A stretch of 64,000 nt of DNA from NCBI GenBank assembly GCA_045533905.1, contig JAZSIR010000022.1, positions 36,498-100,497 on the forward strand, in the 5' to 3' direction. A model generated the notes under the pieces. It was not told the DNA's origin. It ran no database searches and saw only the letters and a list, made by a program, of their open reading frames with translations. This DNA is from Clostridia bacterium. Its GTDB lineage: Bacteria; Bacillota; Clostridia; UMGS1883; UMGS1540. Shown here piece after piece: positions 770-20,119 of the stretch. Every line of letters starts with the position of its first letter. Positions within the stretch are counted from its first letter, which is position 1. A program made the position numbers and the translations under genes.

Positions 770-2473
770 ATGCAAAACAGACTCTCGGAAAGCAAAAGCC
801 CCTACCTTCTCGATCACGCGAGAAATCCCATCGACTGGTTCCCGTGGGGCACCGAAGCCTTTCTCCGCGCGATGGCGGAGGATAGACCGATTCTTTTGAG
901 CGTTGGTTTTTCCGCGTGCCACTGGTGCCACGTGATGGCGCGCGAAAGCTTTGAGGATGAAGAAACCGCCGATATAATAAACCGCCATTTTATCCCCGTG
1001 AAGGTGGACCGCGAGGAGCGGCCCGACGTGGATAAACTCTATATGCACGCGTGCGAAATGCTGACGGGTGGCGGCGGCTGGCCGCTGCACGTATTTTTAA
1101 CGCCCGCCGGCAAGCCCTTTTTCGCGGGCACCTATTTCCCGCCCGAGGATGCAGACGGGCATATGGGCTTTAAGACGCTTCTCCGGAATGCGGCGCGCGC
1201 ATGGGAGGAAAACAAGGCGGCACTTGTGGACTCCGCCTCAAAAATCACCGATATCCTTTGCCGCGAGGAGGAAGGGATGTATAAGGAGACCATCTCCCGC
1301 GATGCCGCAGACGAAGCGGCGGCCGCCCTTGCCGGCGCATTTGACACGGTGCACGGCGGCTTTGGCACGGCGCCCAAGTTCCCCTCGCCGCATACGGTCT
1401 TGTTTCTTCTCGCCTACGGGCGAAAATATGCAAACGCCGAAAGCCGGATGATGGCGGAAAAGACGCTCCAGAAAATCCGTGACGGCGGCCTTTGCGACCA
1501 TGTGGGCGGCGGCTACTTCCGCTATTCGACCGACCGCGCGTGGCACGTGCCGCACTATGAAAAAATGCTTTCGGATAACGCGCTTTTGGCTATCGCCTTT
1601 CTGGAGGCTGGCGGGCACTTTGTGGCGTACGCTGAGGAAATACTCGCCTTTTTGGAAGAAACGCTTTCGGATGCGGGCGGCGGCTATTATGCGGCCGTGA
1701 GCGCGGAAAGCGAAGCGGGCGAGGGTGCTTTTTATCTCTGGGACGCAGAAGAGGTGCGCGAGGTGCTCGGCAAGGAGGGCAAAGCCTTCTGCCGTGCCTT
1801 TCATATCACAGAGCGCTCTCTGCCGCGACGGGAGGATCCTTCGGGCGACTACCGTTCGCAGCTTTCGGCGCTGTATGCCGCGCGGCTTGCACGCCCGCAC
1901 CCGTTTATTGACCGCAAAATCCTGACGGGCCCGAACGCCCTTGCCGCCGTGGCCTTTGCGCGGGCGGGCGAGGCTACGGGAGAGTCGGCCTACACCGAGC
2001 GCGCCAAGAAAATCCTTGCCATGATTGACCGCACGCTCCGAAAGGAGGACGGGCGCCTCCTTGCCCGCTTCTTCGATGGCGAGGCCGGTATTTTAGCCTT
2101 TTTGGAGGATTATGCCTACCTTCTCTGGGCGCGCCTTTCTCTTTATGAGGCGACAGGCGAGGAAGCCTACCTTACGGGCGCAAAGGAAACGTGGGGCGAT
2201 ATTGCGCGCCTTTTCCTTTCCGAGCGCGGCGGCGCCTTTCAAAACGGGCGGGATGCCGAGCAGATGATTGCACCGCTTCTCGAAGCGGACGATGGTGCCA
2301 CCCCCGGCGCCAATGCCGTTTTAGCACTTTGCCTCCGAAAGCTGTATGCCATAACGGGCGACGTCGGCTACCGGACGGATATGGAAAAGATTTTCTTTGC
2401 CTTCGGCGGGCAGGTAAATACGTATCCTTCCGCGTTTTGCTTTCTTTTATACGCGAAGCTCCTGACGGAATAA
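770..2473 (+). CDS. YyaL/DUF255 thioredoxin-domain protein with six-hairpin glycosidase-like domain
   Basis: NRL...[49 protein letters not shown] motifs; ATG 770 after AAAGGA. Confidence 0.9.
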
Positions 2474-2488
2474 AAATGCGAAAAAGGC

Positions 2489-2517
2489 TTGACAAATAGT
2501 TTCTTTCGGAGTATACT
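2489..2517 (+). promoter_or_regulatory. Sigma-A promoter of the aro operon
   Basis: TTGACA(2489-2494)-17 bp-TATACT(2512-2517). Confidence 0.85.
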
Positions 2518-2553
2518 GAGTATATAAACATTCTAGGAAAGGGTCTTTGCAAA

Positions 2554-2637
2554 ATGGTCGCTATGATTTTTGCAATTGCATATTTCTTTTACTTTTACTT
2601 TACCAAGTTCGAAGTAAGGGATTTTTGTGTTGCATAA
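2554..2637 (+). CDS. Phe/Tyr-rich attenuator leader peptide (27 aa, MVAMIFAIAYFFYFYFTKFEVRDFCVA)
   Basis: RBS AGGAAAGGG upstream; seven consecutive Tyr/Phe codons; lies between the promoter and a terminator ahead of aroF. Confidence 0.8.
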   Translation: MVAMIFAIAYFFYFYFTKFEVRDFCVA

Positions 2638-2666
2638 AACTCGCGGGCCCCGAAAGCGGTACTTTC

Positions 2667-2700
2667 AAGGCTACACAGAATCCCCTCTGTGTAGCCTTTT
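2667..2700 (+). terminator. Attenuator terminator hairpin of the aro leader
   Basis: AAGGCTACACAGA-loop-TCTGTGTAGCCTT followed by T-rich tail; 5' arm and loop are complementary to 2618-2633. Confidence 0.85.
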
Positions 2701-2723
2701 ATATTTAGATTGGAGGAAATACC

Positions 2724-3722
2724 ATGATTGCGGTACTTAAAAAGAATACTTCCGAGGAACAAATTCAGCATCTTACCCATTGGCTCGAGGAGCAGGGCGT
2801 TGAGGTGCACGCCTCTTTTGGTGTGGACTATACGGTGCTGGGCCTTGTGGGCGACACGTCCTCAATTGACATAGACCTTCTTGAAAGCCTTGCGATTGTG
2901 GACACGGTCAAGCGCGTGTCCGACCCCTTCAAGCAGTGCAACCGCAAGTTCCACCCCGAGGACACGGTGGTGGACGTTGGCGGCATTAAAATCGGCGGCG
3001 GGCATTTTGCCATTATGGCCGGGCCGTGCTCGGTGGAATCGCGCGAGCAGATGATTACGGTGGCGCACGCCGTAAAGGCCGCCGGCGCCGGCATCCTTCG
3101 CGGCGGTGCTTTCAAGCCTCGCACCTCGCCGTACGACTTTCAGGGTCTTCGCGCGGATGGGATTGAATACCTTCTTGAAGCAAAGCGCGAAACCGGTATG
3201 CCCATCGTAACGGAAATTATGAGCGCAAACCATCTGCCGCTTTTTGAAGAGGTGGACCTCATTCAGGTAGGTGCGCGCAATATGCAAAACTTTGACCTAC
3301 TCAAAGAACTCGGCAAAACGAAAAAGCCGATTCTCCTAAAGCGCGGGCTTGCGAATACTTTGAAAGAATTTTTGATGAGTGCCGAATACATTTTAAGCGA
3401 GGGCAACGGGAACGTCATCCTTTGCGAGCGCGGCATTCGCACCTATGAAACGTACACGCGAAACACGATGGATATTTCCTCGATTCCGCTTCTCCATGAA
3501 CTTTCGCATCTTCCTATCATTGCCGACCCGAGCCACGCAACAGGCAAGGCGCGGCTGGTAGAGCCGATGGCGATGGCCGCCGCCGCCGCAGGGGCGGACG
3601 GGCTTATGATTGAAGTGCACGGCGACCCCGCGCACGCGCTTTGTGATGGCGCGCAGTCCCTCACGCCGACGCAATTTGCGGGCGTGGCGAAAAAGATTCA
3701 GAAAATTCGTGAGATTTTGTAA
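2724..3722 (+). CDS. aroF: DAHP synthase class I-beta with N-terminal regulatory domain
   Basis: AGPCSVES, RGGAFKPRTSPY, QVGARNMQNF, LKRG, CERGIRT, DPSH motifs. Confidence 0.95.
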   Translation: MIAVLKKNTSEEQIQHLTHWLEEQGVEVHASFGVDYTVLGLVGDTSSIDIDLLESLAIVDTVKRVSDPFKQCNRKFHPEDTVVDVGGIKIGGGHFAIMAGPCSVESREQMITVAHAVKAAGAGILRGGAFKPRTSPYDFQGLRADGIEYLLEAKRETGMPIVTEIMSANHLPLFEEVDLIQVGARNMQNFDLLKELGKTKKPILLKRGLANTLKEFLMSAEYILSEGNGNVILCERGIRTYETYTRNTMDISSIPLLHELSHLPIIADPSHATGKARLVEPMAMAAAAAGADGLMIEVHGDPAHALCDGAQSLTPTQFAGVAKKIQKIREIL

Positions 3723-3734
3723 GGAAGTGCTTTT

Positions 3735-4565
3735 ATGCAGGTTGGAATTTTAGGTCTCGGGCTTATCGGCGGCAGTGCGGCGCGCGCCTATAAAGAGGCA
3801 GGGCACACGGTTCTCGCTTTTGACCGCGACAAGGTGATTCTCGATTACGCCATTTTATGCGGCGCGGTGGATGCGCCCCTTCCGCCCGAGGACCTTTCGA
3901 AAGTAGATTTACTGCTTATTTGTCTCTACCCCAAAGCGGCGATAGAATACCTTCGCGAAAACGCCGCGCGCATCTCAAAAGATGCCGTAGTGATTGACTT
4001 TTGCGGCACAAAAAAAGGAATCTCGGAGGTAGGCTTTGCGCTTTCTAAAGAATACGGCTTTCTCTATGTGGGCGGCCACCCCATGGCAGGCACGCACCAC
4101 AGCGGCTTTAAATATAGTAGAAGCGATATGTTCTCGGGCGCGCCCATGGTGATTGTGCCGCCCACTCGTGACGATATAGCGCTTCTTTCACGTGTGCAGA
4201 AGCTTTTATCGCCGCTTTCGTTCGGTTCCTTTACCGTAACGGATGCCGAAGAACACGACAAGAGGATTGCTTTCACCTCCCAGCTTGCGCACATTGTTTC
4301 AAATGCGTATGTAAAATCGCCCGGTGCGGAAAACCACCGCGGTCTTTCCGCCGGAAGCTACCGCGATTTAACGCGCGTGGCGTGGCTCAATCCCGATATG
4401 TGGACGGAATTGTTCCTCGAAAACCGCGAGGCGCTCCTTTCGGAGCTTGACGGGCTACTTAAAAATCTCACAGAATACCGCGACGCTTTAAGAGACGAGG
4501 ACGGCGAGCGCCTATGGCAGCTACTCGAGGACGGACGCCGCCGAAAAGGAGAGATTGACGGATGA
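3735..4565 (+). CDS. tyrA: Prephenate dehydrogenase
   Basis: GLGLIGGS Rossmann motif, GGHPMAG, EEHD, SYRDLTRVA. Confidence 0.93.
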   Translation: MQVGILGLGLIGGSAARAYKEAGHTVLAFDRDKVILDYAILCGAVDAPLPPEDLSKVDLLLICLYPKAAIEYLRENAARISKDAVVIDFCGTKKGISEVGFALSKEYGFLYVGGHPMAGTHHSGFKYSRSDMFSGAPMVIVPPTRDDIALLSRVQKLLSPLSFGSFTVTDAEEHDKRIAFTSQLAHIVSNAYVKSPGAENHRGLSAGSYRDLTRVAWLNPDMWTELFLENREALLSELDGLLKNLTEYRDALRDEDGERLWQLLEDGRRRKGEIDG

Positions 4566-5626
4566 AAAAAATACACGTTGCCGCCGCAAAATCCTATGAT
4601 GTTATCCTCCAAAGCGGCTGTCTTAAAAATATAGGTAAGCACCTTGCGCCTTTTGCCAAAAACGGCTACGCCGCCATTATCACGGACAGCGTGGTGGATG
4701 CGCTTTATGGCGAAACCCTTTCGCGCTCGCTTTCAGAAAGCGGCGTGAAAACTGTAAAATTTGTATTTCCAAACGGCGAAAAATCAAAAAATGCCGATAC
4801 GTACCTTCGCGCGCTTTCCTTCCTTTCTGAAAACCACGTAACGCGCGATGACCTCATCATCGCCCTCGGCGGCGGTGTGGTAGGTGACCTTGCAGGCTTT
4901 ACGGCCGCGACATATTTACGCGGCATTGACTTTGTGCAGATTCCCACCACGCTCCTTGCGATGGTAGATTCCTCCGTCGGCGGCAAAACGGCGATAGATT
5001 TGCCCGAGGGCAAAAACCTCGTCGGCGCTTTTCATCAGCCGCGTGCCGTGTTCTGCGACCCCGAGGTACTCGATACACTTCCCGCCGATATTTTCAGAGA
5101 CGGCTCGGCGGAAGTGATTAAATACGGCGTACTTGGCGATGCCGCGCTTTTTTACCACCTCACGGAAAAAGGCCTCGATTTCGACCGCGACTATGTACTG
5201 GAGCGCTGTATAGCGCTTAAAAGCCGCATCGTGGAAAGCGATGAATTTGACAAGGGCACCCGAGCGCTTTTAAACCTTGGGCACACCGTGGGGCATGCCA
5301 TTGAAAAGGAAAGCAATTTCGCGCTTTCGCACGGCGTCGGCGTCGGCATCGGCATGGCGATGATTGCAAAAAGCGCCGCGGCAAACGGATTTTGCGAAAA
5401 AACGGTTTTTGAAGAAATTTGCGCGGTTTTAGAAAAATTTGGTCTTCCTACATCGACCGAAATGGAAAAGGGGCGCATTCTTTCGGCCATGCTTTCCGAT
5501 AAAAAACGCCGCGGCGATGCGATTACACTTGTTCTCCCCGAAAAAATCGGGAGTGCTGTGCTTTACGAGGCACCCATTTCGTCTCTTTCTGCCTTTCTTT
5601 TTGAAGGCGACAAGGAGGAAGTATGA
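4562..5626 (+). CDS. aroB: 3-dehydroquinate synthase
   Basis: GGGVVGDLAGF, PTTLLAMVDSSVGGKT, LNLGHT. Confidence 0.95.
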   Translation: MKKIHVAAAKSYDVILQSGCLKNIGKHLAPFAKNGYAAIITDSVVDALYGETLSRSLSESGVKTVKFVFPNGEKSKNADTYLRALSFLSENHVTRDDLIIALGGGVVGDLAGFTAATYLRGIDFVQIPTTLLAMVDSSVGGKTAIDLPEGKNLVGAFHQPRAVFCDPEVLDTLPADIFRDGSAEVIKYGVLGDAALFYHLTEKGLDFDRDYVLERCIALKSRIVESDEFDKGTRALLNLGHTVGHAIEKESNFALSHGVGVGIGMAMIAKSAAANGFCEKTVFEEICAVLEKFGLPTSTEMEKGRILSAMLSDKKRRGDAITLVLPEKIGSAVLYEAPISSLSAFLFEGDKEEV

Positions 5627-6891
5627 ATATTACCATCTCGCCGCGGCCCCTCCGTGGCAAAATCTCGGCGATTCCCTCAAAATCCGTAGCGCACCGCCTA
5701 CTCATCGCGGCGGCGCTGGCGAAAACGCCTGCAAAAATTTTGATACGTGACACAAACGAAGATATAGATGCCACGGCAAGGTGCCTTTTGGCGCTCGGCA
5801 CGCGTGCAGAGAAGGCGGCAGATGGCTTTACGCTTACGCCCACCTCGTCGTACGCTTCCGAAATCGACTGTGGCGAAAGCGGCTCCACCCTTCGCTTCCT
5901 TCTCCCCGTTTTGGGGGCATACGGAAGGGCGGTTCGCCTTCAGCTTCATGGGCGGCTTGGGGCAAGACCCCTTTCCCCCCTTTGGGAAGAGCTCGAGCGC
6001 CATGGAATGACGCTTCGAAAGGAAGATGAGAACACGCTTTTAGTCTTTGGAAAGCTCCAAAGCGGCGCGTATTCTCTTCCGGGGAACATTTCCTCGCAGT
6101 TTATAAGCGGCCTTCTTTTTGCCTTGCCGCTACTCTCTGGGGACAGTACGCTTTCGATTACTTCCCCCATCGAATCCGAAGGCTACATAAAAATGACCGA
6201 GGATGCCCTTAAAAAATGCGGCATTCGGTTTACTGCCCGAAATAATACCTATAAAATCCCCGGCGGGCAGGTGCCCGTGGTGGCGCAAAACGCGCCGCTC
6301 TCTGCTGAGGGGGACTGGTCAAACGCCGCGTTCTGGCTCTCGGCAGGTGCCTTTTCGGACGGCATTTCGGTAGACGGGCTCTCGCTTTCCTCTCTGCAAG
6401 GCGACCGCGAAATTGTATCGATTTTATCGCGTTTTGGCGCGGAGGTACGCGAGGAAGAAACCGGTATTCTCGTAAAGCGCGGCACAATGACAGGCCTTTC
6501 GCTTTCTGCGCGGCAGATTCCCGACCTTGTGCCGATTCTCTCGGTTTTAGCGGCCGGCGCGCACGGCAAAACGAAAATCTCAGGTGCCGAGCGGCTGAAA
6601 ATTAAGGAAAGTGACCGTCTTTTGGCGGTTTTTGAGATGCTTTCCGCACTTGGCGGCATTGTGGAAAGAACGGAAGACGGCCTTATCATCGAAGGCGGCG
6701 TGCCCCTTTTGGGCGGCACGGTGGATAGCTTTTCTGATCACCGCATTGCGATGAGCGCTGCCATTCTTTCGTCACTATGCCAAGGCCCCGTCACCATTTT
6801 GGGCGCGGAGGCCGTAAATAAATCGTATCCCGCCTTTTGGGAGGACTTTGCCGCCCTTGGCGGTCAGTTTGAAAGGAGCGAAATCCTTTGA
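5623..6891 (+). CDS. aroA: EPSP synthase
   Basis: PSKS.AHR, CGESGSTLRF, SSQFISGLL, KESDR, DHRIAM, KSYP.F. Confidence 0.95.
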   Translation: MNITISPRPLRGKISAIPSKSVAHRLLIAAALAKTPAKILIRDTNEDIDATARCLLALGTRAEKAADGFTLTPTSSYASEIDCGESGSTLRFLLPVLGAYGRAVRLQLHGRLGARPLSPLWEELERHGMTLRKEDENTLLVFGKLQSGAYSLPGNISSQFISGLLFALPLLSGDSTLSITSPIESEGYIKMTEDALKKCGIRFTARNNTYKIPGGQVPVVAQNAPLSAEGDWSNAAFWLSAGAFSDGISVDGLSLSSLQGDREIVSILSRFGAEVREEETGILVKRGTMTGLSLSARQIPDLVPILSVLAAGAHGKTKISGAERLKIKESDRLLAVFEMLSALGGIVERTEDGLIIEGGVPLLGGTVDSFSDHRIAMSAAILSSLCQGPVTILGAEAVNKSYPAFWEDFAALGGQFERSEIL

Positions 6892-7994
6892 GCAGTACGT
6901 TTGGAAAAAATATTCATATTTCTCTGGCGGGCGAATCCCACGGCGAGGCTCTCGGCGTGATTATGGACGGATTTCCCGCAGGCTTTCGTGTGGATATGGA
7001 AGCGCTTTCTGCCTTTTTGGCGCGGCGCGCACCCGGGCAAAACCGATTTTCCACGCCACGGCGCGAGGCAGATGCCCCTAAATTTTTATCAGGTCTACTG
7101 GGGGGTGTAACCACGGGTGCACCGATTTTAGCCATTATTGAAAACACAAACCAAAAAAGCGCGGACTATGCGGCACTCGCAGATATTCCGCGTCCGGGGC
7201 ATGCAGACTATACGGCGCATATAAAATACGGCGGCCACGCGGACGCGCGCGGCGGCGGGCATTTTTCCGGTCGCCTTACGGCACCCCTCGCGGTTGCCGG
7301 CGGCATTGCGCGGCAGATGCTTTCCGAAAAGGGCATTTTGGTTTTTGCACACATTCGCGCCATCGGCGGCGTATGGGGAGAGGCACCCGCGTATTCCCCA
7401 AGCGATATACCTGCCCTTTCGGCTGTCGCAGAGAAAGAGTTCCCTGCATTTGACGATGCCGCCGCACCTCGTATGGAGGCGGAAATGGATGCGGCACGCG
7501 AAGCGGGCGACTCTGTGGGCGGCATTATCGAGGTTTCTGTACTGGGACTTCCCGCGGGACTTGGTGCTCCGATGTTTGACCGCGTGGAAGGGCGTATTTC
7601 CGCGGCCGTTTGGGGCGTGCCGGCCGTTCGCGGCATTGAATTCGGGGAAGGCTTTGGCGCGGCGAATTTACGCGGCAGCGAGAATAACGACGCTTTCTAT
7701 TATGACGAGGACGGCGCAGTCCGCACCCGCACAAACCACGCCGGCGGGGTACTCGGCGGCATCTCAACGGGCGAGCCGCTCGTTTTCCGCGTAGGCATAA
7801 AGCCTACACCCTCGATTTTCAAAGAACAGGAAAGCATTTCTCTCTCTAAGAAAGAGGCGGCAACGCTTTCTACAAAGGGGCGGCATGACCCGTGTATCGT
7901 ACCGCGTGCAGTGCCGGCTTTAGAAGCCGCAACGTCTCTTGCCGTACTCGATTTACTGTTTGACCACGATATGCTTTGGAAAAAGGAGCGATAA
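6888..7994 (+). CDS. aroC: Chorismate synthase
   Basis: GESHG, PRPGHAD, GGGHFSGR, KPTPSI, GRHDPC; TTG start overlapping the aroA stop. Confidence 0.95.
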   Translation: MSSTFGKNIHISLAGESHGEALGVIMDGFPAGFRVDMEALSAFLARRAPGQNRFSTPRREADAPKFLSGLLGGVTTGAPILAIIENTNQKSADYAALADIPRPGHADYTAHIKYGGHADARGGGHFSGRLTAPLAVAGGIARQMLSEKGILVFAHIRAIGGVWGEAPAYSPSDIPALSAVAEKEFPAFDDAAAPRMEAEMDAAREAGDSVGGIIEVSVLGLPAGLGAPMFDRVEGRISAAVWGVPAVRGIEFGEGFGAANLRGSENNDAFYYDEDGAVRTRTNHAGGVLGGISTGEPLVFRVGIKPTPSIFKEQESISLSKKEAATLSTKGRHDPCIVPRAVPALEAATSLAVLDLLFDHDMLWKKER

Positions 7995-7997
7995 ACG

Positions 7998-9152
7998 ATG
8001 GAGAATCTCTTAAAAATATACCGCGATGAAATCAACCGCATCGATGATGAGATGGTACGTCTTTTCGGCGAGCGGATGGAGGTGGCAGGAAAGATTGCCG
8101 CCCACAAAAAGGAAAACGGGCTTCCCGTTCTCGATGCACGCCGCGAGCGTGAGAAAATGGCAGATGTACAAAAGAAAGCCGATCCGCGCTTTGCTTCGTA
8201 CACCACCTCTCTCTACTCGCTTCTCTTTTCTATGAGCCGCGCGTGGCAGGAAAAGCTGCTCGCGCCCGAAAGTGCGCTTCATAAAACGGTTTCGGAAGCG
8301 ATCGACGCGCACACAAACTGCGAATTTCCGCCGAGCGCGATGGTAGCTTGCCAGGGCGTGGACGGGGCATACTCCCAGATTGCCGCGGACCATATGTTCC
8401 AAAATGCGAATATTTTATATTTTGATACGTTTGACAAGGTCTTCTCTGCAATTGACAAGGGGCTTTGCACGTACGGCGTTTTGCCGATTGAAAACAGCAC
8501 GGCAGGCTCCGTAAACCGCGTGTATGACCTGATGCTCGAGCATAATTTCTACATTGTGAAAAGCACGCGCATTAAGGTGGACCATTGTCTTCTTACAAAA
8601 GAAGGCGTGGACATTTCGGAAATTCGCGAAATCTTCACGCACGAGCAGGCCATTCGCCAGTGTGGCGACTTTTTAGCCTCGCTCGGAAAAGATGTGAAAA
8701 TAACGCCGTGCGAAAATACGGCCATGGCGGCAAAGCTTGTGGCAGAGTCTACCCGCCGCGACGTGGCGGCGCTTTCCTCGTACCACTGTGCAAAGCTCTA
8801 TGGGCTTTACTGCCACAAGAGCGCCGTGCAAAATACGGAAAACAACTACACGCGCTTTATCTGCATTTCCAAAAAGCTTGAAATTTATCCGGGTGCGGAT
8901 AAAACGAGTATTATGATGGTGCTTCCGCACGAGCCGGGTGCGCTTTACAAGGTGCTCGGACGTCTTTACACCATCGGTCTAAACCTCATAAAGCTCGAAA
9001 GCCGCCCTATGCCAAACCGTAATTTCGAGTTTATGTTCTACTTTGATTTAGAAACAAGTGTGTATTCTGAGGCGTTTGTGGAGCTTTTATGCGAGCTTGA
9101 GAATTCGGGCGAAGAGTTCCGCTACCTCGGCAGCTACACGGAAACGGTGTAA
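7998..9152 (+). CDS. pheA: Chorismate mutase / prephenate dehydratase (P-protein) with ACT domain
   Basis: N-terminal R.EI..ID...LF.ERM mutase domain, PIENSTAG, NYTRF, KLESRP. Confidence 0.92.
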   Translation: MENLLKIYRDEINRIDDEMVRLFGERMEVAGKIAAHKKENGLPVLDARREREKMADVQKKADPRFASYTTSLYSLLFSMSRAWQEKLLAPESALHKTVSEAIDAHTNCEFPPSAMVACQGVDGAYSQIAADHMFQNANILYFDTFDKVFSAIDKGLCTYGVLPIENSTAGSVNRVYDLMLEHNFYIVKSTRIKVDHCLLTKEGVDISEIREIFTHEQAIRQCGDFLASLGKDVKITPCENTAMAAKLVAESTRRDVAALSSYHCAKLYGLYCHKSAVQNTENNYTRFICISKKLEIYPGADKTSIMMVLPHEPGALYKVLGRLYTIGLNLIKLESRPMPNRNFEFMFYFDLETSVYSEAFVELLCELENSGEEFRYLGSYTETV

Positions 9153-9155
9153 GTT

Positions 9156-10391
9156 ATGAAAAAATGCGGACTTTTGGGAGAAACCCTCTCCCACAGTTTT
9201 TCGCCCCGGTTGCACGCCCACTTCGGCACGTATTCTTACGAGCTTTTTGAAGTGGCGCCGTGCGCGCTCACGTCCTTTCTTATGACGCGTGATTTTGACG
9301 GATTGAACGTAACGATTCCGTACAAAAAAGCGGTGCTTCCGCACCTTGACGAGCTTTCGCCCATCGCGGCGCGGCTTGGAAGCGTGAACACCATCCTTCG
9401 CCGCGAAGACGGCACGCTCTGGGGGCATAATACGGACTATTTCGGCTTTTCGTATATGCTTTCGAAAAGCGGCATTTCCGTGGAAGGGAAAAAGGCACTC
9501 GTACTGGGAAGCGGCGGTGCATCTGCTACCGTGTGCGCGGTGCTTTCTGACGCGGGCGCGCGCGAGGTGTGCGTAATTTCAAGAAGCGGGGAAAACACAT
9601 ACGAAACGCTTTCCCGCCACTATGATGCGGAAATTATCGTAAACACCACACCCGTCGGTATGTACCCGCACGTGGGCGAGGCGCCCATCTCTCTCGCTCC
9701 TTTCAAAACCTGTGCGCTCGTTTTGGACATTATTTATAACCCTTCGAAAACGGCGCTACTTCTCGAAGCGGAAAGCCTCGGCATCCCGCACCTTGGGGGG
9801 CTTTCCATGCTCGTCGCGCAAGGGGCGGAAAGTGCAGGATATTTTGGCGGCGCGCCCATCTCCGATGCAGTTTTGGAAGAAACGATACGTAAGATAGAAA
9901 AATCGCAGAAAAATCTCATTCTTATCGGGATGCCGGGGGCAGGCAAAACGACCATTGGCAAAAAACTTGCCGCGCGAATGGAGCGAAAATTTATAGATGC
10001 GGATGATGCCGTGCGAGAGCGCGCAGGCATGTCTATCCCCGAAATTTTTGAAAAAGAAGGCGAAGCCGGTTTTCGAAAACGCGAGACCGAGGTTTTATCC
10101 GCACTCGGGAAAGAGAGCGGCCTTGTAATTGCCACGGGCGGCGGGGCCGTTGTGCGCGAAGAAAACTATGCGCATCTCCACCAAAACGGCGTATTCGTTT
10201 ATCTTCGCCGTGCGCTCGAAAACCTCCCGAAAAAAGGGAGGCCCCTATCGCTTTCGGGAAACCTCCCAAAAATGTATGCCGAGCGCGCGCCGCTGTATGC
10301 GCGCTTTGCCGATGCCGAGGTGGAAAATGAGGGGACACTTTCAGAAGTTATAGAAAGGGTGGTAAAAGCGTATGAAAATTCTTGTAATTAA
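9156..10391 (+). CDS. aroE: Shikimate dehydrogenase-shikimate kinase fusion (AroE-AroK)
   Basis: HSFSP, NVTIPYK, NTD, GSGGA, NTTPVGM, then GMPGAGKTT P-loop, FRKRE, ATGGG, RPL. Confidence 0.9.
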   Translation: MKKCGLLGETLSHSFSPRLHAHFGTYSYELFEVAPCALTSFLMTRDFDGLNVTIPYKKAVLPHLDELSPIAARLGSVNTILRREDGTLWGHNTDYFGFSYMLSKSGISVEGKKALVLGSGGASATVCAVLSDAGAREVCVISRSGENTYETLSRHYDAEIIVNTTPVGMYPHVGEAPISLAPFKTCALVLDIIYNPSKTALLLEAESLGIPHLGGLSMLVAQGAESAGYFGGAPISDAVLEETIRKIEKSQKNLILIGMPGAGKTTIGKKLAARMERKFIDADDAVRERAGMSIPEIFEKEGEAGFRKRETEVLSALGKESGLVIATGGGAVVREENYAHLHQNGVFVYLRRALENLPKKGRPLSLSGNLPKMYAERAPLYARFADAEVENEGTLSEVIERVVKAYENSCN

Positions 10392-10806
10392 CGGACCGAA
10401 CCTGAATATGCTGGGCATTCGCGAGCCTGAAATCTACGGGCACGAAACGTACGCGGATCTTGTGCGCTATATTGAAGAAAGCGCGCGCGAGGCAGGCGCC
10501 GAAATCGAAGTGTACCAGTCAAACTACGAAGGGGATATCGTTACAAAAATTCAGGAAGCACACGGCAAAATGGACGGCATTGTGATAAACCCTGCCGCCT
10601 ACACGCACACGAGCATGGCAATTTTGGATGCGCTTCGCGCCGTTTCCCTCCCCGCTGTGGAGGTGCATCTTTCCGACATTACAAACCGCGAAGCCTTTCG
10701 CCGCCTTTCCTATGCAGGTATGGGCTGTGTGAAAACATTTATGGGGCTCGGGTTTGCAGGGTACAGAGACGCGATTTTTTATCTGAAAGAAAACTACGGC
10801 AAATAG
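10372..10806 (+). CDS. aroQ: Type II 3-dehydroquinate dehydratase
   Basis: INGPNLNMLG.REP.IYG, NPAAYTHTS, EVHLS. Confidence 0.95.
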   Translation: MKILVINGPNLNMLGIREPEIYGHETYADLVRYIEESAREAGAEIEVYQSNYEGDIVTKIQEAHGKMDGIVINPAAYTHTSMAILDALRAVSLPAVEVHLSDITNREAFRRLSYAGMGCVKTFMGLGFAGYRDAIFYLKENYGK

Positions 10807-10815
10807 AAAAATACG

Positions 10816-10848
10816 AAAAGCCTTTTCCGAGTGCGGAAAGGCTTTTTT
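10816..10848 (+). terminator. Intrinsic terminator of the aro operon
   Basis: AAAAGCCTTTTCCG-AGTG-CGGAAAGGCTTTTTT. Confidence 0.8.
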
Positions 10849-11059
10849 CATGCTTATCTTTGCGAAAGCAAAATAAAACTCTGCCCAAAGTGCAGAATAC
10901 CACTTGCGAAGCAAATACCACCCGCGCCGCGCGCGGATATACCTGCGAAGCGATCAATGGACCGCGCACAGCGTCCTCTGCGCGGTGGTGTTTTGACATA
11001 GCAAAAAGGCTTCTCCTTTTTGCGGTCTGGACTTTTTTACATTCCCCTTGCAAAGAGAG

Positions 11060-11120: not shown

Positions 11121-13295
11121 TTATTTCGCGATAATGCTGTTTGCAATGCCAAGGATCTTAGCGAGCTGTGCACGTGTGATGGTGGCCTTCGGAGCCAGAG
11201 TGCCATCGCCCATGCCGTTTACGATGCCTGCCTTTGTAAGAGCTGTGATAGCTTCAACACACGCTGCATCGATGCTTGCTGCGTCTGTGTATTCGATTGC
11301 TTCTGCAGTTTCAGCGAGTTCTACGCCTGCAGCCTTGAGGGCATTGTAAAGAAGTGTGAATGCAACTTCGCGAGTTGTTGCAGCTTCTACATCAACCTTG
11401 TCGCCAAATACACCGAGGATGTTGGCTTCGGCAGCTGCTGCCATTTCAGCCTGTACCCAGTGATCCTTTGCAACGATATCGGTGGTAGCACCATCTTTAG
11501 CCTTGAGGCCTGCAATGCGAACTGCAAGTGCAACAACCTGAGCATTTGTGGTCTTTTCTTCCGGACCGAATGTTGTAGCGGTCATACCCTTGATAACGCC
11601 TGCTTTTGCAAGAGCGTCGATGCCGTCGTATGCCCAAGCGTAGGTTTCCTTGTTAACGTCGGTGAATGCTGCAGCACCGTTTTCGATAGCTTCGCCTGCC
11701 GGATCGTTATCTTCCTTGGGTTCTTCCTTCGGCTCTTCTTCCTTCGGTTCTTCTTCCTTCTTATCATCGCTGAGGGAAGCACCACCAACGCTGCCGCCGC
11801 CGCTCGGGAGCTTAGCGATTGCATTTGTGAATGCAACTGTCTTTGTTGTGGAAATGTCAAGAGCGTCGGTTGCGGTGATCACAACTACAACGAACTTGCC
11901 TTCTGTTTCCTTCGGAACAGCAAAGCTGTTGTCGGAATCAAGAACTTCTTTGCCTTCTGCGCTGAATTCTTCTGCTGCAACGAATTCGTCAACAATGTAC
12001 CATGCATAGGCAATTGTCGGAACTGCAGTGTCGCCTTCAGCGTTGCTTACTGCAGATACGTTAGCTGCAGAAAGTGCGAAGGAGGCGCCTGCATACGGCT
12101 TCTTGGACGGAACGGTTTCTGCGATTGTGAGTGTCGGCGGTTCGCTTGTGATGGTGTAGCTGTCAGAAGCAACTTCTTCACTTGCTGCGAATGCTTCGCC
12201 GCCTACAGAGATTGTAACAATGGCCTTAACAACCACGGTCTTGTCAATGGCATCTGCGCCGAAGGTTGCAGTTTCGCCGACAACCGGATCTGCTGCGCCT
12301 TCAAGGAACCACTTGTATGCTACTGCATATTCTGCATTTGCATATGTCTTTTCAAAAGTAGCAACTGCCTTAGCTGCTGCAGCTGCGGAAACTTTGCCGC
12401 CTTCAACTGCTACTGCAGAGATAACCGGAGCATAGCCTTCTGCCGGGAGGATGTAGCCACAGTCAAATGCTTCGGAAAGAGCACCTTCAGCATCGATAGC
12501 GCGAACATCTGTCTTCGGGAGAACGGTGTAGGAAAGCTTCTTGCCAACCCAAGCATCGTCGCTGATTGCGAGTGTTTTGCCGGTAGCTACTGCGGCTTCG
12601 ATGCCTTCTACATACCACTTAACTTCGGAAACATCGCCTGCTGTGGTATCAGCACCCGGTGTTCTTTCACCGTTGTCGAATGCGTAGTCAGCTTCAACGG
12701 TTTCGCCATCTGCAACTGTGCCGTCTACTGCAAAAGAGGAAGCTGTGGGAGCAACCGGCTTTGCCTTTACAACAACTGCATCAGCAGCGGTTTTGTCGGT
12801 AATGGTCCAAGCTTCGCCACCGTTTACTGCGGTGTAAAGGGAAGTGGCGGTCATAGCACTGTCGCCTGCGGCGATTGCCTTGAAGGTGAGAGTGAAGAGA
12901 ATGCCATCAGCCGGCATATCGATAGAGCCCTGGCCCTTCTTAATGCCGAGGATGCTGAGGTCGCCATTTTCGAGGAATGTGCACATATCGAGTGCAAATG
13001 CTCTGTCGAATGTGGTAACAGCATCTTCCGGATAGTCGCTTACAGCGTCGCCTTCAGCGTCTACGAGCTGTACAACTTCGTCGTCGTATGCAAGAACGAG
13101 GTCATGCATAGCAACTGTTTCGGGGCCTTCTACCTTTACGTCTACAGTGAAGAGATTGTCTTCACCTTCTACATAGTAAACCGAGGCCGGATCCCAAACA
13201 AGTGTTAATGTGCCTTCGTTTGCCGCGGCTACTGCGAAAGACATCGACAGAAGCATCATAACGGCAAGCAAAACGGCAGAAATTTTCTTCATCAT
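11121..13295 (-). CDS. Cell-surface protein: signal peptide, N-terminal cohesin-like domain, about 3 Ig-like repeats, Glu/Pro/Lys linker, 3 C-terminal SLH domains
   Basis: Signal MMKKISAVLLAVMMLL; FTVDVKV...LAYDDEVVQLV...LFTLTFKA cohesin-like strands; FTDV...WAY..I..L...GVIKG...FGP and GIVNG.GDG...P...ITRAQ SLH motifs. Confidence 0.85.
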   Translation of the reverse strand: MMKKISAVLLAVMMLLSMSFAVAAANEGTLTLVWDPASVYYVEGEDNLFTVDVKVEGPETVAMHDLVLAYDDEVVQLVDAEGDAVSDYPEDAVTTFDRAFALDMCTFLENGDLSILGIKKGQGSIDMPADGILFTLTFKAIAAGDSAMTATSLYTAVNGGEAWTITDKTAADAVVVKAKPVAPTASSFAVDGTVADGETVEADYAFDNGERTPGADTTAGDVSEVKWYVEGIEAAVATGKTLAISDDAWVGKKLSYTVLPKTDVRAIDAEGALSEAFDCGYILPAEGYAPVISAVAVEGGKVSAAAAAKAVATFEKTYANAEYAVAYKWFLEGAADPVVGETATFGADAIDKTVVVKAIVTISVGGEAFAASEEVASDSYTITSEPPTLTIAETVPSKKPYAGASFALSAANVSAVSNAEGDTAVPTIAYAWYIVDEFVAAEEFSAEGKEVLDSDNSFAVPKETEGKFVVVVITATDALDISTTKTVAFTNAIAKLPSGGGSVGGASLSDDKKEEEPKEEEPKEEPKEDNDPAGEAIENGAAAFTDVNKETYAWAYDGIDALAKAGVIKGMTATTFGPEEKTTNAQVVALAVRIAGLKAKDGATTDIVAKDHWVQAEMAAAAEANILGVFGDKVDVEAATTREVAFTLLYNALKAAGVELAETAEAIEYTDAASIDAACVEAITALTKAGIVNGMGDGTLAPKATITRAQLAKILGIANSIIAK

Positions 13296-13347
13296 AATTT
13301 TGTTACCTCTTTCTTTGGATTTTACCGCGTGCCTTGCGGGGTATTAC

Positions 13348-15144
13348 TTAATAACCAAATCTCCATTCAGCATAGAGAGCGGAAGCGTCGAGACCGTTTA
13401 CTTCGCCGCTGCCGTCAATGTCGGCTGCGATATTGTAAAGTTCAACGTTCTCTGTGGTTGCACGCCATGCAGCGTAGAGGGCGGAAGCGTCCATACCGTC
13501 AACCTTGCCGTCAACGTAGATGTCACCGGCTACCATATTTACGGTGAAGCCTTCTGCGGTGATATCTTCTGCGCGTACCGAGTCAACAGCTGCAACTGCG
13601 CCGTCTGCTACTGTGAGCGTGAAGGTGAGCGTTACAAAGCCGGGACGTGCAACAACAACGGTGTGATCGCCGTCTGCAACAGCTTCTGCAGTAAAGACTG
13701 CGCCGTCAGCTGCAGCTTCTGCGCCGTCAACGGTTACAGTTGCATCCACAACAGCATCTACTGCAATCTTTGCGAGTGTGATAGCTACTTCGATACCCTT
13801 TACATTGATCTGGTTTACAGTCAGTGTGTAAGAAACAGTTTCTGTAGTATCTGCATCATCGCCGTATACGATAGTAGCAACTGCTTCGTAAGCTGTCTTC
13901 GGTTCTGCTGCATCGGAAGCGGCACGAGCGAGTTCTACAACGCCTGCTTCTACAGCAATTTCGTCAATCGTCCAGCTGATAACTGCATCAGAGCCTTCTA
14001 CTGCGGCCGGAAGCGTAACGCTTGCCTTACCGAAGAGAGCCTGTGCATCATCCGGAGTGCCATCTTCCGGCCATGCCGGGTCAGCAGTTTCGAATTCGGA
14101 ATCGCTGTATACGACTTCGGGAGCTACGAGAGCGTTCTTTGCAGCGGTGGTTTCAGCTGTGATTACAACATCTGCTGTAACAACTGCAAACTTCGGAGCT
14201 GCGATAGAAACTACATATGTGTCAACGCCTGTCTTCGGAGCGGTGATACCTGTGATAGTAAGAACACCGTCAGAAATTGCATACTCGAAACCTTCTACTG
14301 CTTCGCCGCCCTTTGTGATGGAAACGCTTTCTGCACCGATGTTGGAAATCCATTCGTTAGCATCTTCAAGTGCGATGGCGATTGCTTCGTCGCCTACGAG
14401 AGCGAGGTCAGAAGCTGTACCCGGTGTCTTTGCGACAGCTGTGATACCTTCTTCAGATTCCCAACGGGCATCTTTAAAGAGCTTCTTGTCAGCTGCAGCT
14501 TTCAGAACAACCTTTGTTACAGTGCCTTCGCCGAGGTTTGCAATGGCGAGCTCGCCATCTGCAAAGGTTACGTCATCAAGGTCAACGGAAACTTCTTCGC
14601 CGTTTAAGGTTACGGTAACTGTGCCGACTCTTTCGAACCATGCATCAGCATCGCTGCCGGTTACGGAGAATACGAGGTCATCCCCAAATTCCCAGTTTTC
14701 GGTTACGAGTGCAAGTGTCGGAGCCTTTACGAGTGCTTCAACGCTTGTGTATGCAACAGCAGAAACGTTTTCACCGCCAACGAAGGCTGTGATGATGCCG
14801 CCGATTGTTGCATCTGCACGCGGAACGAATGTGAACGAGAAAGCGCCTTCTGTTGCAGCCTTCTGGTCGATGTAGACAACGTCTTCGCCGAGGTCTTCAT
14901 CCGTATATGCCGCAAGAGCCTCATCATCGTATGCCTGACCGCCACGAACAGCGAGGATGGTTACTTCTGCATCAGCATCCGAAATGGTGCCGGCGATGGT
15001 AACTGTACCTTCTGCTTCGTTAACGGTAGCCGATGTGATTGCCACTTCAGTTGCAGTTTCTTCTGCAAATGCCACTGTGGGAATCATGCACAATGCGAGT
15101 ACGATCGCAAGGGCTTTCCGCAAGTTGTTTGTTCTTTTGAACAT
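13348..15144 (-). CDS. Secreted acidic protein: Ig-like domains, two DUF1533-like repeats, X module and C-terminal dockerin
   Basis: Signal peptide; duplicated Ca-loop/helix GDIYVDGKVDGMDASALYAAW and ADIDGSGEVNGLDASALYAEW; HTVVVARPGF X-module motif. Confidence 0.8.
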   Translation of the reverse strand: MFKRTNNLRKALAIVLALCMIPTVAFAEETATEVAITSATVNEAEGTVTIAGTISDADAEVTILAVRGGQAYDDEALAAYTDEDLGEDVVYIDQKAATEGAFSFTFVPRADATIGGIITAFVGGENVSAVAYTSVEALVKAPTLALVTENWEFGDDLVFSVTGSDADAWFERVGTVTVTLNGEEVSVDLDDVTFADGELAIANLGEGTVTKVVLKAAADKKLFKDARWESEEGITAVAKTPGTASDLALVGDEAIAIALEDANEWISNIGAESVSITKGGEAVEGFEYAISDGVLTITGITAPKTGVDTYVVSIAAPKFAVVTADVVITAETTAAKNALVAPEVVYSDSEFETADPAWPEDGTPDDAQALFGKASVTLPAAVEGSDAVISWTIDEIAVEAGVVELARAASDAAEPKTAYEAVATIVYGDDADTTETVSYTLTVNQINVKGIEVAITLAKIAVDAVVDATVTVDGAEAAADGAVFTAEAVADGDHTVVVARPGFVTLTFTLTVADGAVAAVDSVRAEDITAEGFTVNMVAGDIYVDGKVDGMDASALYAAWRATTENVELYNIAADIDGSGEVNGLDASALYAEWRFGY

Positions 15145-18969: not shown

Positions 18970-18985
18970 TTGCTTCTTTCTTTTT

Positions 18986-19097
18986 GCTCTTTATACCGGA
19001 CTATACCGTCGGCTTCGGAATTTCACCGAATCAGCCGTCTTATAAAAGACGGGTCGCGGGCTGTACCGCCGGTAGGGAATTGCACCCTGCCCCGAGC
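18986..19097 (-). ncRNA. FMN (RFN) riboswitch aptamer with an atypical 3' joining segment
   Basis: CTCGGGGCAGGGTGCAATTCCCTACCGGCGGTACAGCCCGCGA...GATTCGGTGAAATTCCGAAGCCGACGGTATAGTCCGG; P1 GCTC/GAGC. Confidence 0.9.
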
Positions 19098-19099
19098 TA

Positions 19100-20119
19100 T
19101 TAATATTTGCGTTTGGAAATACTTACGTTTTCGCGAAGAGCATCAATATTATCGAGCGCTTTGCCCGTACCGATGGCAACGCAGGAAATAGCATCCTCTG
19201 CGATGCGCACGCTGATGCCCGTCTCCTTCTGGAGAAGAAGGTCAAGCCCGTGAATGAGCGAGCCGCCGCCCGTAAGTACGATACCTGCATTACTGATATC
19301 ACCCACAAGCTCCGGCGGTGTTTTTTCCAAAACGGAGTGGACAGCATCCACAATTGCGGTGGCCGGTTCCTCAAGCGCCTCAAGCATTTCCGAGGAAGAA
19401 ACCGTAGCGGTTTTCGGAAGGCCTGTTACAAGGCAACGCCCGCGGATTTCCATCGTTTCGTTTTCTTCGCGCGGGTACACACAGCCGATTTTGATTTTCA
19501 TATCTTCTGCCGTGCGGTCACCAATCGAAATGTTGTGCTTTTTACGGATGTAGCGAACGAGCGTTTCGTCAAAAGCGTCACCCGCGACCTTAATCGAGTT
19601 ACTTACTACGATACCGCCAAGCGAGATAACCGCAACGTCACTCGTGCCGCCGCCGATATCGACGACCATACTGCCGTACGGCTTTGCAATATCAAGGCCT
19701 GCCCCGATTGCCGCGGCAATCGGTTCTTCGATGAGATGGACGCGTCTCGCGCCTGCCTGCATCGCCGCATCGATTACGGCGCGCTCCTCTACTTCTGTGA
19801 CGCCGCTCGGCACACAGACGATGACATTGGGGCGGAAAAGGCGCTTGTTGCAAACCTTCTTAAGGAAATATTTCAGCATTTTTTCTGTGGTGTCATAATC
19901 GGAAATAACCCCGTCACGAAGGGGACGGATGGCTACGATGTTGCCCGGCGTGCGCCCGATCATACGCTGTGCCTCAAGCCCTACCTCCTGGACTTTGCCG
20001 GTGTTCTTGTCAATCGAAACAACCGAGGGCTCTTTGAGGACGATGCCGCGGCCGCGTACATAGACAAGTACGCTTGCGGTACCAAGGTCGATACCGATAT
20101 CCTGTTTGTATCCAAACAT
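19100..20119 (-). CDS. mbl: MreB-family rod shape protein (Mbl-like)
   Basis: IGIDLGTA, EPSVV, RPLRDGVI, EEPIAAAIGAG, DIGGGT, LTGGG; no mreCD alongside. Confidence 0.85.
   Translation of the reverse strand: MFGYKQDIGIDLGTASVLVYVRGRGIVLKEPSVVSIDKNTGKVQEVGLEAQRMIGRTPGNIVAIRPLRDGVISDYDTTEKMLKYFLKKVCNKRLFRPNVIVCVPSGVTEVEERAVIDAAMQAGARRVHLIEEPIAAAIGAGLDIAKPYGSMVVDIGGGTSDVAVISLGGIVVSNSIKVAGDAFDETLVRYIRKKHNISIGDRTAEDMKIKIGCVYPREENETMEIRGRCLVTGLPKTATVSSSEMLEALEEPATAIVDAVHSVLEKTPPELVGDISNAGIVLTGGGSLIHGLDLLLQKETGISVRIAEDAISCVAIGTGKALDNIDALRENVSISKRKY

Follow-up and report, generated by a model that had tools for sequence, protein, structure and literature searches.

The leader of an eight-gene aro-tyrA-pheA operon in the 64,000-nt stretch of clostridial DNA analysed here (hereafter, the window) combines a Phe/Tyr leader ORF with three mutually exclusive predicted helices, and it is very probably a ribosome-mediated transcription attenuator of that operon. 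This mechanism, put forward in an original prediction made from the sequence of the window, is supported by conservation of the element, the frame of its start codons, the complementarity of the antiterminator, footprint folding and the lack of a T-box.

Elements of the leader and the operon behind it

The leader begins with the promoter TTGACA-17-TATACT at positions 2489-2517 (consensus match 11/12), with transcription predicted to start near position 2524; no second promoter was found on the + strand within positions 2000-3200. The ORF that follows (Table 1) displays the first feature of a classical attenuator, being a short 5' ORF with a ribosome-binding site, rich in codons for the end products of its pathway: the peptide contains seven Phe and three Tyr residues and no Trp, and the run YFFYFYF occupies codons 10-16. 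The promoter and the 27-codon, Trp-free ORF with ten aromatic residues were recovered exactly where the original prediction had placed them. An NCBIfam search with the leader peptide returned no family.

Table 1. Features of the leader and of the operon in the window.
Feature	Position	Strand	Basis
SigA-type (sigma-70) promoter	2489..2517	+	sequence; similar hexamers ahead of the uORF in relatives
Leader-ORF ribosome-binding site AGGAAAGGG, purine-rich, ATG 10 nt further	2535..2543	+	sequence; relatives with similar purine tract
Leader ORF, 27 codons, MVAMIFAIAYFFYFYFTKFEVRDFCVA and stop	2554..2637	+	sequence; frame test, 44/45 loci
Control codons YFFYFYF (4 Phe, 3 Tyr), within segment 1	2581..2601	+	aligned core columns Phe/Tyr in 30-32 of 32 sequences
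Protector (anti-antiterminator) 1:2, outer stem 2571-2580/2626-2634, inner stem 2585-2595/2611-2621	2571..2634	+	fold; outer stem covaries
Antiterminator 2:3, 2618-2633 pairing 2670-2684	2618..2684	+	fold, shuffle test, alignment
Intrinsic terminator 3:4, stem 2667-2698 (G-C-closed part 2669-2696) and interrupted U-tract TTTTATATT (2697-2705)	2667..2705	+	fold; compensatory pairs in relatives
aroF ribosome-binding site GGAGG, not covered by the terminator hairpin	2712..2716	+	sequence, fold
aroF, DAHP synthase	2724..3722	+	above cut-off, NF006421 and TIGR01361
tyrA-like, prephenate dehydrogenase	3735..4565	+	best E 1.9e-43, below family cut-offs
aroB	4562..5626	+	TIGR01357 above cut-off
aroA	5623..6891	+	TIGR01356 above cut-off
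aroC	6888..7994	+	TIGR00033 above cut-off
pheA-like, chorismate mutase/prephenate dehydratase	7998..9152	+	208.9 bits against cut-off 219 (NF008865); N-terminal chorismate mutase match
aroE-aroK fusion, shikimate dehydrogenase-shikimate kinase	9156..10391	+	each half matches, below cut-offs
aroQ, type II dehydroquinase, last gene	10372..10806	+	TIGR01088 above cut-off
Terminator-like hairpin ending the operon	10816..10849	+	sequence read by eye

An intrinsic terminator (2667-2698, 13 pairs, -20.8 kcal/mol, with TTATATTT directly after it) stands between the uORF and the first gene, leaving the ribosome-binding site of that gene uncovered, as in classical attenuators. The segment 2618-2633 pairs with 2670-2684 in an antiterminator of 14 pairs with one bulge and one U-U mismatch, the duplex (-18.2 kcal/mol) exceeding its dinucleotide shuffles (p=0.02, 200 shuffles); both this pairing and the terminator are as originally described. 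A protector helix 1:2 (2571-2634, -18.8 kcal/mol), in which the aromatic codons are paired with segment 2, had been overlooked, and its addition completes the classical attenuator layout: in the predicted folds the helices 1:2, 2:3 and 3:4 exclude each other, and a stall frees segment 2, only prior to completion of the terminator. The whole leader folds at z=-4.4, with none of 200 shuffles being equally good. Two further elements of the fold in the window, a small hairpin (2651-2665) and a helix covering the start region, were kept out of the mechanism because the spacer is not conserved.

The operon reads aroF-tyrA-aroB-aroA-aroC-pheA-aroE/K-aroQ, without a trp gene, in agreement with the gene content proposed earlier, and its intergenic gaps are 12, -4, -4, -4, 3, 3 and -20 nt. 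In the 95.5% complete genome neither trpA nor trpE was found, and TRAP (mtrB, PF02081) was likewise not found in a search that detected the B. subtilis positive control; these absences are consistent with a leader lacking Trp codons. The upstream gene (701-2473, +), presumably YyaL/SSP411-like, has a thioredoxin-like N-terminus and no NCBIfam match, ends 16 nt before the promoter and is swapped for other genes in most relatives. There is no terminator between it and the promoter, so its transcripts could enter the attenuator.

The lack of a T-box, noted originally from the letters, holds under the model search proposed for it: Rfam 15 gave no match on the leader at the gathering threshold and just two chance miRNA matches at E<=10, and the T-box model (RF00230) found six sites in the genome, none of them at the leader. 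The genes behind these six T-boxes (L018-L023) were read by eye from their N-termini as pheS, aspS and TrpB2-like, the others being, by eye, an acyl-CoA ligase, a LeuA-like and an HTH-fused protein. The genome apparently uses a T-box for a synthetase (pheS by eye) and a leader peptide for biosynthesis. Elsewhere in the window, an FMN riboswitch (107.8 bits) lies at 18980-19103 (-), and two long acidic, Ala-rich, secreted-looking proteins of 724 and 598 aa are encoded at 11121-15144 (-), which, by eye, we take to resemble S-layer-homology and cohesin/dockerin-type surface proteins.

The leader ORF and its helices among relatives

Phe/Tyr runs of seven or more codons occur only twice in the six frames of the 1.57-Mb genome, the leader run included. 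Leaders were called with the same settings throughout, a call consisting of a Shine-Dalgarno-led ORF of 10-45 codons with an aromatic cluster and a nearby hairpin with a U tail. As a control, 533 leaders of the own genome (defined by crude gene calls) gave nine calls, namely the window leader with seven aromatic codons in eight (the highest), one with six and seven with four, i.e., five or more in eight were reached by 2/533 leaders. No second copy of the leader was found in this genome.

Within the family, 17/22 genomes yielded an aroF locus, and the uORF stood at 16 of these 17. In the class sample aroF was detected at E<=1e-100 in 254/399 genomes, and the 103 loci analysed (100 genomes, 36 families) comprised the 17 family loci, 26 further best matches and 60 loci hand-picked among the 150 matches listed, a further 188 class matches lying outside those 150; this set leans to close relatives, and its counts are therefore not an estimate of prevalence. 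A uORF with at least five aromatic codons in eight, together with a terminator, preceded aroF at 69/103 loci and in 26/36 families (74/103 loci at four or more). The five calls at 4/8 were left out of later counts, giving a working set of 69 leaders, and the loci missed by the caller include, by eye, mid-operon copies, bare promoters and some false negatives. Thus, the comparison of aroF upstream regions called for in the original prediction does reveal a conserved uORF, in the family and class-wide.

A frame-neutral DNA motif was present at 49/103 loci, four of them having no Shine-Dalgarno-led ATG in range; at 44 of the other 45 (17 families) the ATG was in the Phe/Tyr frame, against a chance value of 1/3. 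The indication that the leader ORF is translated is indirect but strong. The peptides range from about 17 to 45 codons and differ in their flanks and in where they stop, the aromatic run being kept; Trp is present in 7/69 peptides and FYF in 43/69. An exact motif scan of GTDB gave 20 matches in records titled Clostridia, Oscillospiraceae, Clostridiaceae or Bacillota, all of them accepted by the caller and 18 located 76-318 nt ahead of aroF. The covariance-model search of the class, in which 19 candidates were scored per genome, found the element in at least 28/150 genomes, a floor not used for prevalence, and among 14 weaker or new matches inspected, four resemble bare terminators (L154, L156, L162, L163). 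Leaders of another type precede aroF in one family (f16: L047, L055, L060), with a longer ORF, fewer aromatic codons and the ending WRWRKF or LRWRKF; no clear matching terminator was seen in these three, and they possibly represent another attenuator class.

The leader, about 180 nt long, is built of the ORF, the terminator and, between them, a spacer that varies among relatives; the median distance from the aromatic run to segment 2 is 19 nt in the 69 leaders. The antiterminator was more stable than its shuffles (p<=0.05) in 46/69 leaders and not in the other 23, its mean energy being -15.1 kcal/mol with the cognate partner versus -9.9 kcal/mol when the partner was taken from another family. 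For covariation, 32 of the 69 leaders, picked as likely alignable, were aligned. Helix 2:3 had 74% paired cells and 35 two-sided changes, a level reached by 9/500 column shuffles; slid by +1 or +2 columns, it still gave 31 and 35 two-sided changes, but just 42% and 56% paired cells. The outer 1:2 stem had 18 two-sided changes (0/500 column shuffles), and the inner 1:2 stem, which has two possible registers, was conserved with no covariation beyond shuffles (221/500). Compensatory changes were seen in all but one of eight terminator pairs. The covarying stems which the original prediction had proposed to look for are accordingly found in the outer 1:2 stem and in helix 2:3, although kin are not independent and counts of conservation and covariation therefore overstate significance.

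Footprint folding, proposed mechanism and alternative explanations

When the window leader was folded with a ribosome footprint and a transcript end at 2692, the terminator gave way to the antiterminator for A-site codons 8/9 to 17/18 only, a range that includes the aromatic run. In the model applied to the 69 leaders, the transcript stopping 6 nt short of the terminator end, mean terminator pairing was 0.66 with no ribosome, 0.14 with a stalled one and 0.83 with the ribosome at the stop codon; 56/69 leaders switched by >0.3 and 13/69 did not, and shuffling of the freed segment brought terminator pairing back to 0.67. The complete terminator of the window remained paired at equilibrium (0.97) whatever the ribosome position, i.e., full-leader equilibrium folding produced no switch and truncated transcripts alone switched. 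The footprint check suggested earlier thus bears out that a stall on the aromatic run disables the terminator, though solely as long as the hairpin is still incomplete. Because the complete terminator wins at equilibrium, the switch would be kinetic, and the model rests on the order of folding. At a transcript end of 2686 without a ribosome, helix 2:3 (0.63) is ahead of 1:2 (0.41), so some leak is predicted.

We propose the following mechanism. With ample charged tRNA-Phe and tRNA-Tyr, the ribosome would reach the stop codon (2635-2637) and cover segment 2, and the terminator would form, ending transcription near 2700-2705. With no ribosome on the leader, helix 1:2 would sequester segment 2 and termination would be favoured. 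Under shortage of the charged tRNAs, the ribosome would stall at codons 10-16, melting helix 1:2, and the freed segment 2 would capture the 5' arm and loop of the terminator before the 3' arm exits RNA polymerase, so that the operon would be transcribed. A polymerase pause is probably required for such a kinetic switch.

In B. subtilis, uORF control involves NusG pausing at TTNTTT (PMC9226507). This motif occurs between the aromatic run and the terminator in 28/69 leaders, versus 18.5 expected, and is absent there in the window; a conserved pause motif of the NusG type was not established in the 69 leaders. The B. subtilis polymerase outruns its ribosomes, a short distance from stop codon to terminator serving as a proxy (review, PMC7858274), and C. 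difficile was reported not to have the short-distance pattern (PMC8237595). In the own genome, 51% of 322 terminator-like hairpins (1079 genes) start <=12 nt from the stop codon in a crude and uncalibrated count, and uncoupled ('runaway') transcription is possible there; it would handicap ribosome control. Coupling of the ribosome to the polymerase is the main unexplained step of the attenuator model.

Of the two amino acids that the leader was originally proposed to sense, Phe is the safer inference, and sensing of Tyr is likely. As a sub-case of the attenuator, the leader might answer Phe only, Tyr codons being kept since TAC supplies the inner 1:2 pairing, and we regard this as rather unlikely, though deserving consideration. 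In the Tyr columns of the alignment the codon is mostly TAC (25/32 and 28/32), whose partner in the inner stem is GTA, and the C. glutamicum AroR leader contains Phe-Tyr-Phe, yet its operon is unaffected by Tyr (PMC11802643). However, at least two Phe and at least two Tyr codons occur in 67/69 leaders, Tyr is absent from none and several runs are mostly Tyr; stalls at Y10, Y13 or Y15 fall inside the switch window; and two leaders that stand before Phe-specific genes have no Tyr (L157 before pheA, its leader read by eye, and L205 before a PaaK-like gene), which suggests (n=2) that codon content tracks the pathway.

Explanations that dispense with the ribosome fare worse. A protein that binds the repeated UUUUAC in the style of TRAP or PyrR and picks the helix, the ORF being incidental, would accord with the strong conservation of the nucleotide repeat, which shows few synonymous changes, with the possible runaway-transcription signature of the genome and with the fact that protein-mediated attenuation is common in Firmicutes; we nevertheless hold it to be very improbable, as Shine-Dalgarno-led start codons lie in the Phe/Tyr frame in 44/45 cases, distant leaders have lost the repeat and kept the aromatic codons, and TRAP (PF02081) is the protein that the 95.5% complete genome did not yield. 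The conserved reading frame speaks equally against a T-box or metabolite riboswitch too divergent for Rfam, as do the absence of any match to the leader at E<=10 that goes beyond chance and a leader of ~180 nt made up of ORF, variable spacer and terminator only; the six T-boxes elsewhere in the genome, one of them before the gene read as pheS by its N-terminus, do lend it some plausibility, but this already disfavoured explanation is extremely improbable. That the peptide, which is hydrophobic, is a small membrane or signalling protein with the hairpin as its constitutive terminator, aroF being expressed by leak or from another promoter, is scarcely credible either, given that length, stop and flanks vary freely around a constant aromatic run, that the antiterminator is conserved, that 2000-3200 holds no other + strand promoter and that the element travels with aromatic-pathway genes. 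The ribosome-mediated attenuator accordingly remains our preferred reading.

Known aromatic leaders and other genes behind the element

Attenuators with an amino-acid leader peptide are textbook matter in Proteobacteria, those of Firmicutes being for the most part predictions. The window leader shares the four-segment layout of the E. coli pheL and trpL attenuators, i.e., a leader peptide with control codons, protector, antiterminator and terminator. The E. coli leaders respond to a single amino acid and serve terminal-pathway operons in a host with coupled transcription and translation, whereas the window leader carries a mixed run before the whole shikimate-Phe-Tyr pathway and has a 33-nt spacer from segment 2 to the terminator stem.

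The closest described element is uORF-13 (Stav et al., 2019, BMC Microbiol 19:66, PMC6429828), with 336 examples in Clostridiales and other Firmicutes, about half of them before aroF, for which the paper and its supplement describe an F-Y-F peptide and a terminator and propose a trp-like attenuator. The window leader resembles it in being a short F-Y-F ORF upstream of a terminator, before aroF and shikimate genes and in Clostridia/Firmicutes, the F-Y-F feature being found in the window leader as well as in 43/69 relatives. The text on uORF-13 names just P1 and the terminator and mentions neither an antiterminator nor footprint logic nor an experiment; F-Y-F is placed in the P1 loop, whereas in the window it lies inside the covarying outer stem and is partly paired by the inner stem; and 'amino acid transporters' are named among the targets, while pheA, TrpX-like and PaaK-like genes are not (PMC6429828). 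With three described features matching, the window leader probably belongs to uORF-13, as compared by description.

Other relatives of the element are more distant. The F-Y-rich Firmicute uORF-12 shares some shikimate gene context with the window leader, but is more complex, has its peptide before stem P1 and is found mostly ahead of transporters (PMC6429828); the window leader departs from it in that its aromatic codons fall inside the first helix. The predicted attenuator uORFC-13-1 of Acholeplasma, found exclusively before aroF (Brewer et al., 2021, PMC8632094), similarly comprises a promoter, an RBS, a uORF with Phe codons and a terminator; its 24 examples (Acholeplasma and environmental) have at least one Phe codon, as against the seven-codon Phe/Tyr run of the window, and it is likened here by description. 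AroR of C. glutamicum, tested and answering to Phe and not to Tyr (Neshat et al., 2014, as reviewed in PMC11802643), also has a Phe-Tyr-Phe leader before an aroF operon, where ribosome stalling raises transcription, but belongs to Actinobacteria and is called structurally distinct from uORF-13 by Stav et al. (PMC6429828). Moreover, His-leader attenuators have been predicted in several Firmicute groups (PMC9413887). The novelty for Firmicutes that the original prediction implied was therefore overstated, uORF-13 having been predicted in Clostridiales in 2019 (PMC6429828): the window attenuator is neither a new principle nor a first sighting.

In C. difficile, named by Stav et al. as a carrier of their motifs (PMC6429828), the aroF2 operon has a premature 3' end (2105845) in its 5' UTR, 38 nt before the gene start at 2105883, which Fuchs et al. 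(2021, PMC8237595) entered among putative regulators without an explanation. By analogy, this end may be counted in favour of the attenuator, the likeness lying in the position before aroF alone. Besides this 3'-end mapping, no experimental test of the element in Firmicutes was found in a literature search in which subscription journals were thinly covered and the name 'uORF-13' occurs in a supplement only, so this absence carries little weight.

The covariance-model matches also place the leader before pheA-like genes (L145 and L157, the latter leader having, by eye, six Phe, one Trp and no Tyr) and before a TrpX-like ABC substrate-binding protein (L148, L149); the leaders of this transporter have Phe/Tyr and no Trp codons, so it may carry Phe/Tyr. 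A further copy, near 1460-1610 of L122, precedes a gene for a PaaK-like phenylacetate-CoA ligase (1637-2950; 547 bits, cut-off 646), and another (L126/L172, near 390-560) precedes a cluster of Na+/solute symporter, PaaK-like and small protein genes (618-3990 in L172 coordinates). The leader of the closest PaaK orthologue (L205, 78%) has seven Phe and no Tyr codons, and IorA, above cut-off, is encoded elsewhere in both genomes with PaaK-linked leader copies. In the rumen, phenylacetate can serve microbes as a precursor of Phe (PMC7356843), and the PaaK-linked leaders suggest salvage of phenylacetate to Phe. A role of the leader as a general control of phenylacetate genes was rejected, as 0/30 symporter and 0/30 PaaK-like loci carried it at five or more in eight, one passing at four, and these upstream regions double as controls for the aroF counts; the link between the leader and phenylacetate genes is rare and sporadic.

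As a broader and tentative reading, which we consider possible rather than probable, the three-helix kinetic Phe and Tyr attenuator would be the main aromatic control in dozens of gut Clostridia families, would work despite uncoupled-looking genomes, would have its codon mix tuned to the gene and would indicate that some lineages supply themselves with Phe by taking up phenylacetate (symporter) and activating it (PaaK-like ligase). The window holds an exceptionally clear example, and the relatives compared with it define the helices explicitly and predict where a stall would act, which makes testable both dual Phe/Tyr sensing by a mixed run and ribosome control of a terminator in a phylum whose polymerase can outrun ribosomes. 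In uncultured gut Clostridia, moreover, the leader can be used to annotate genes of aromatic supply.
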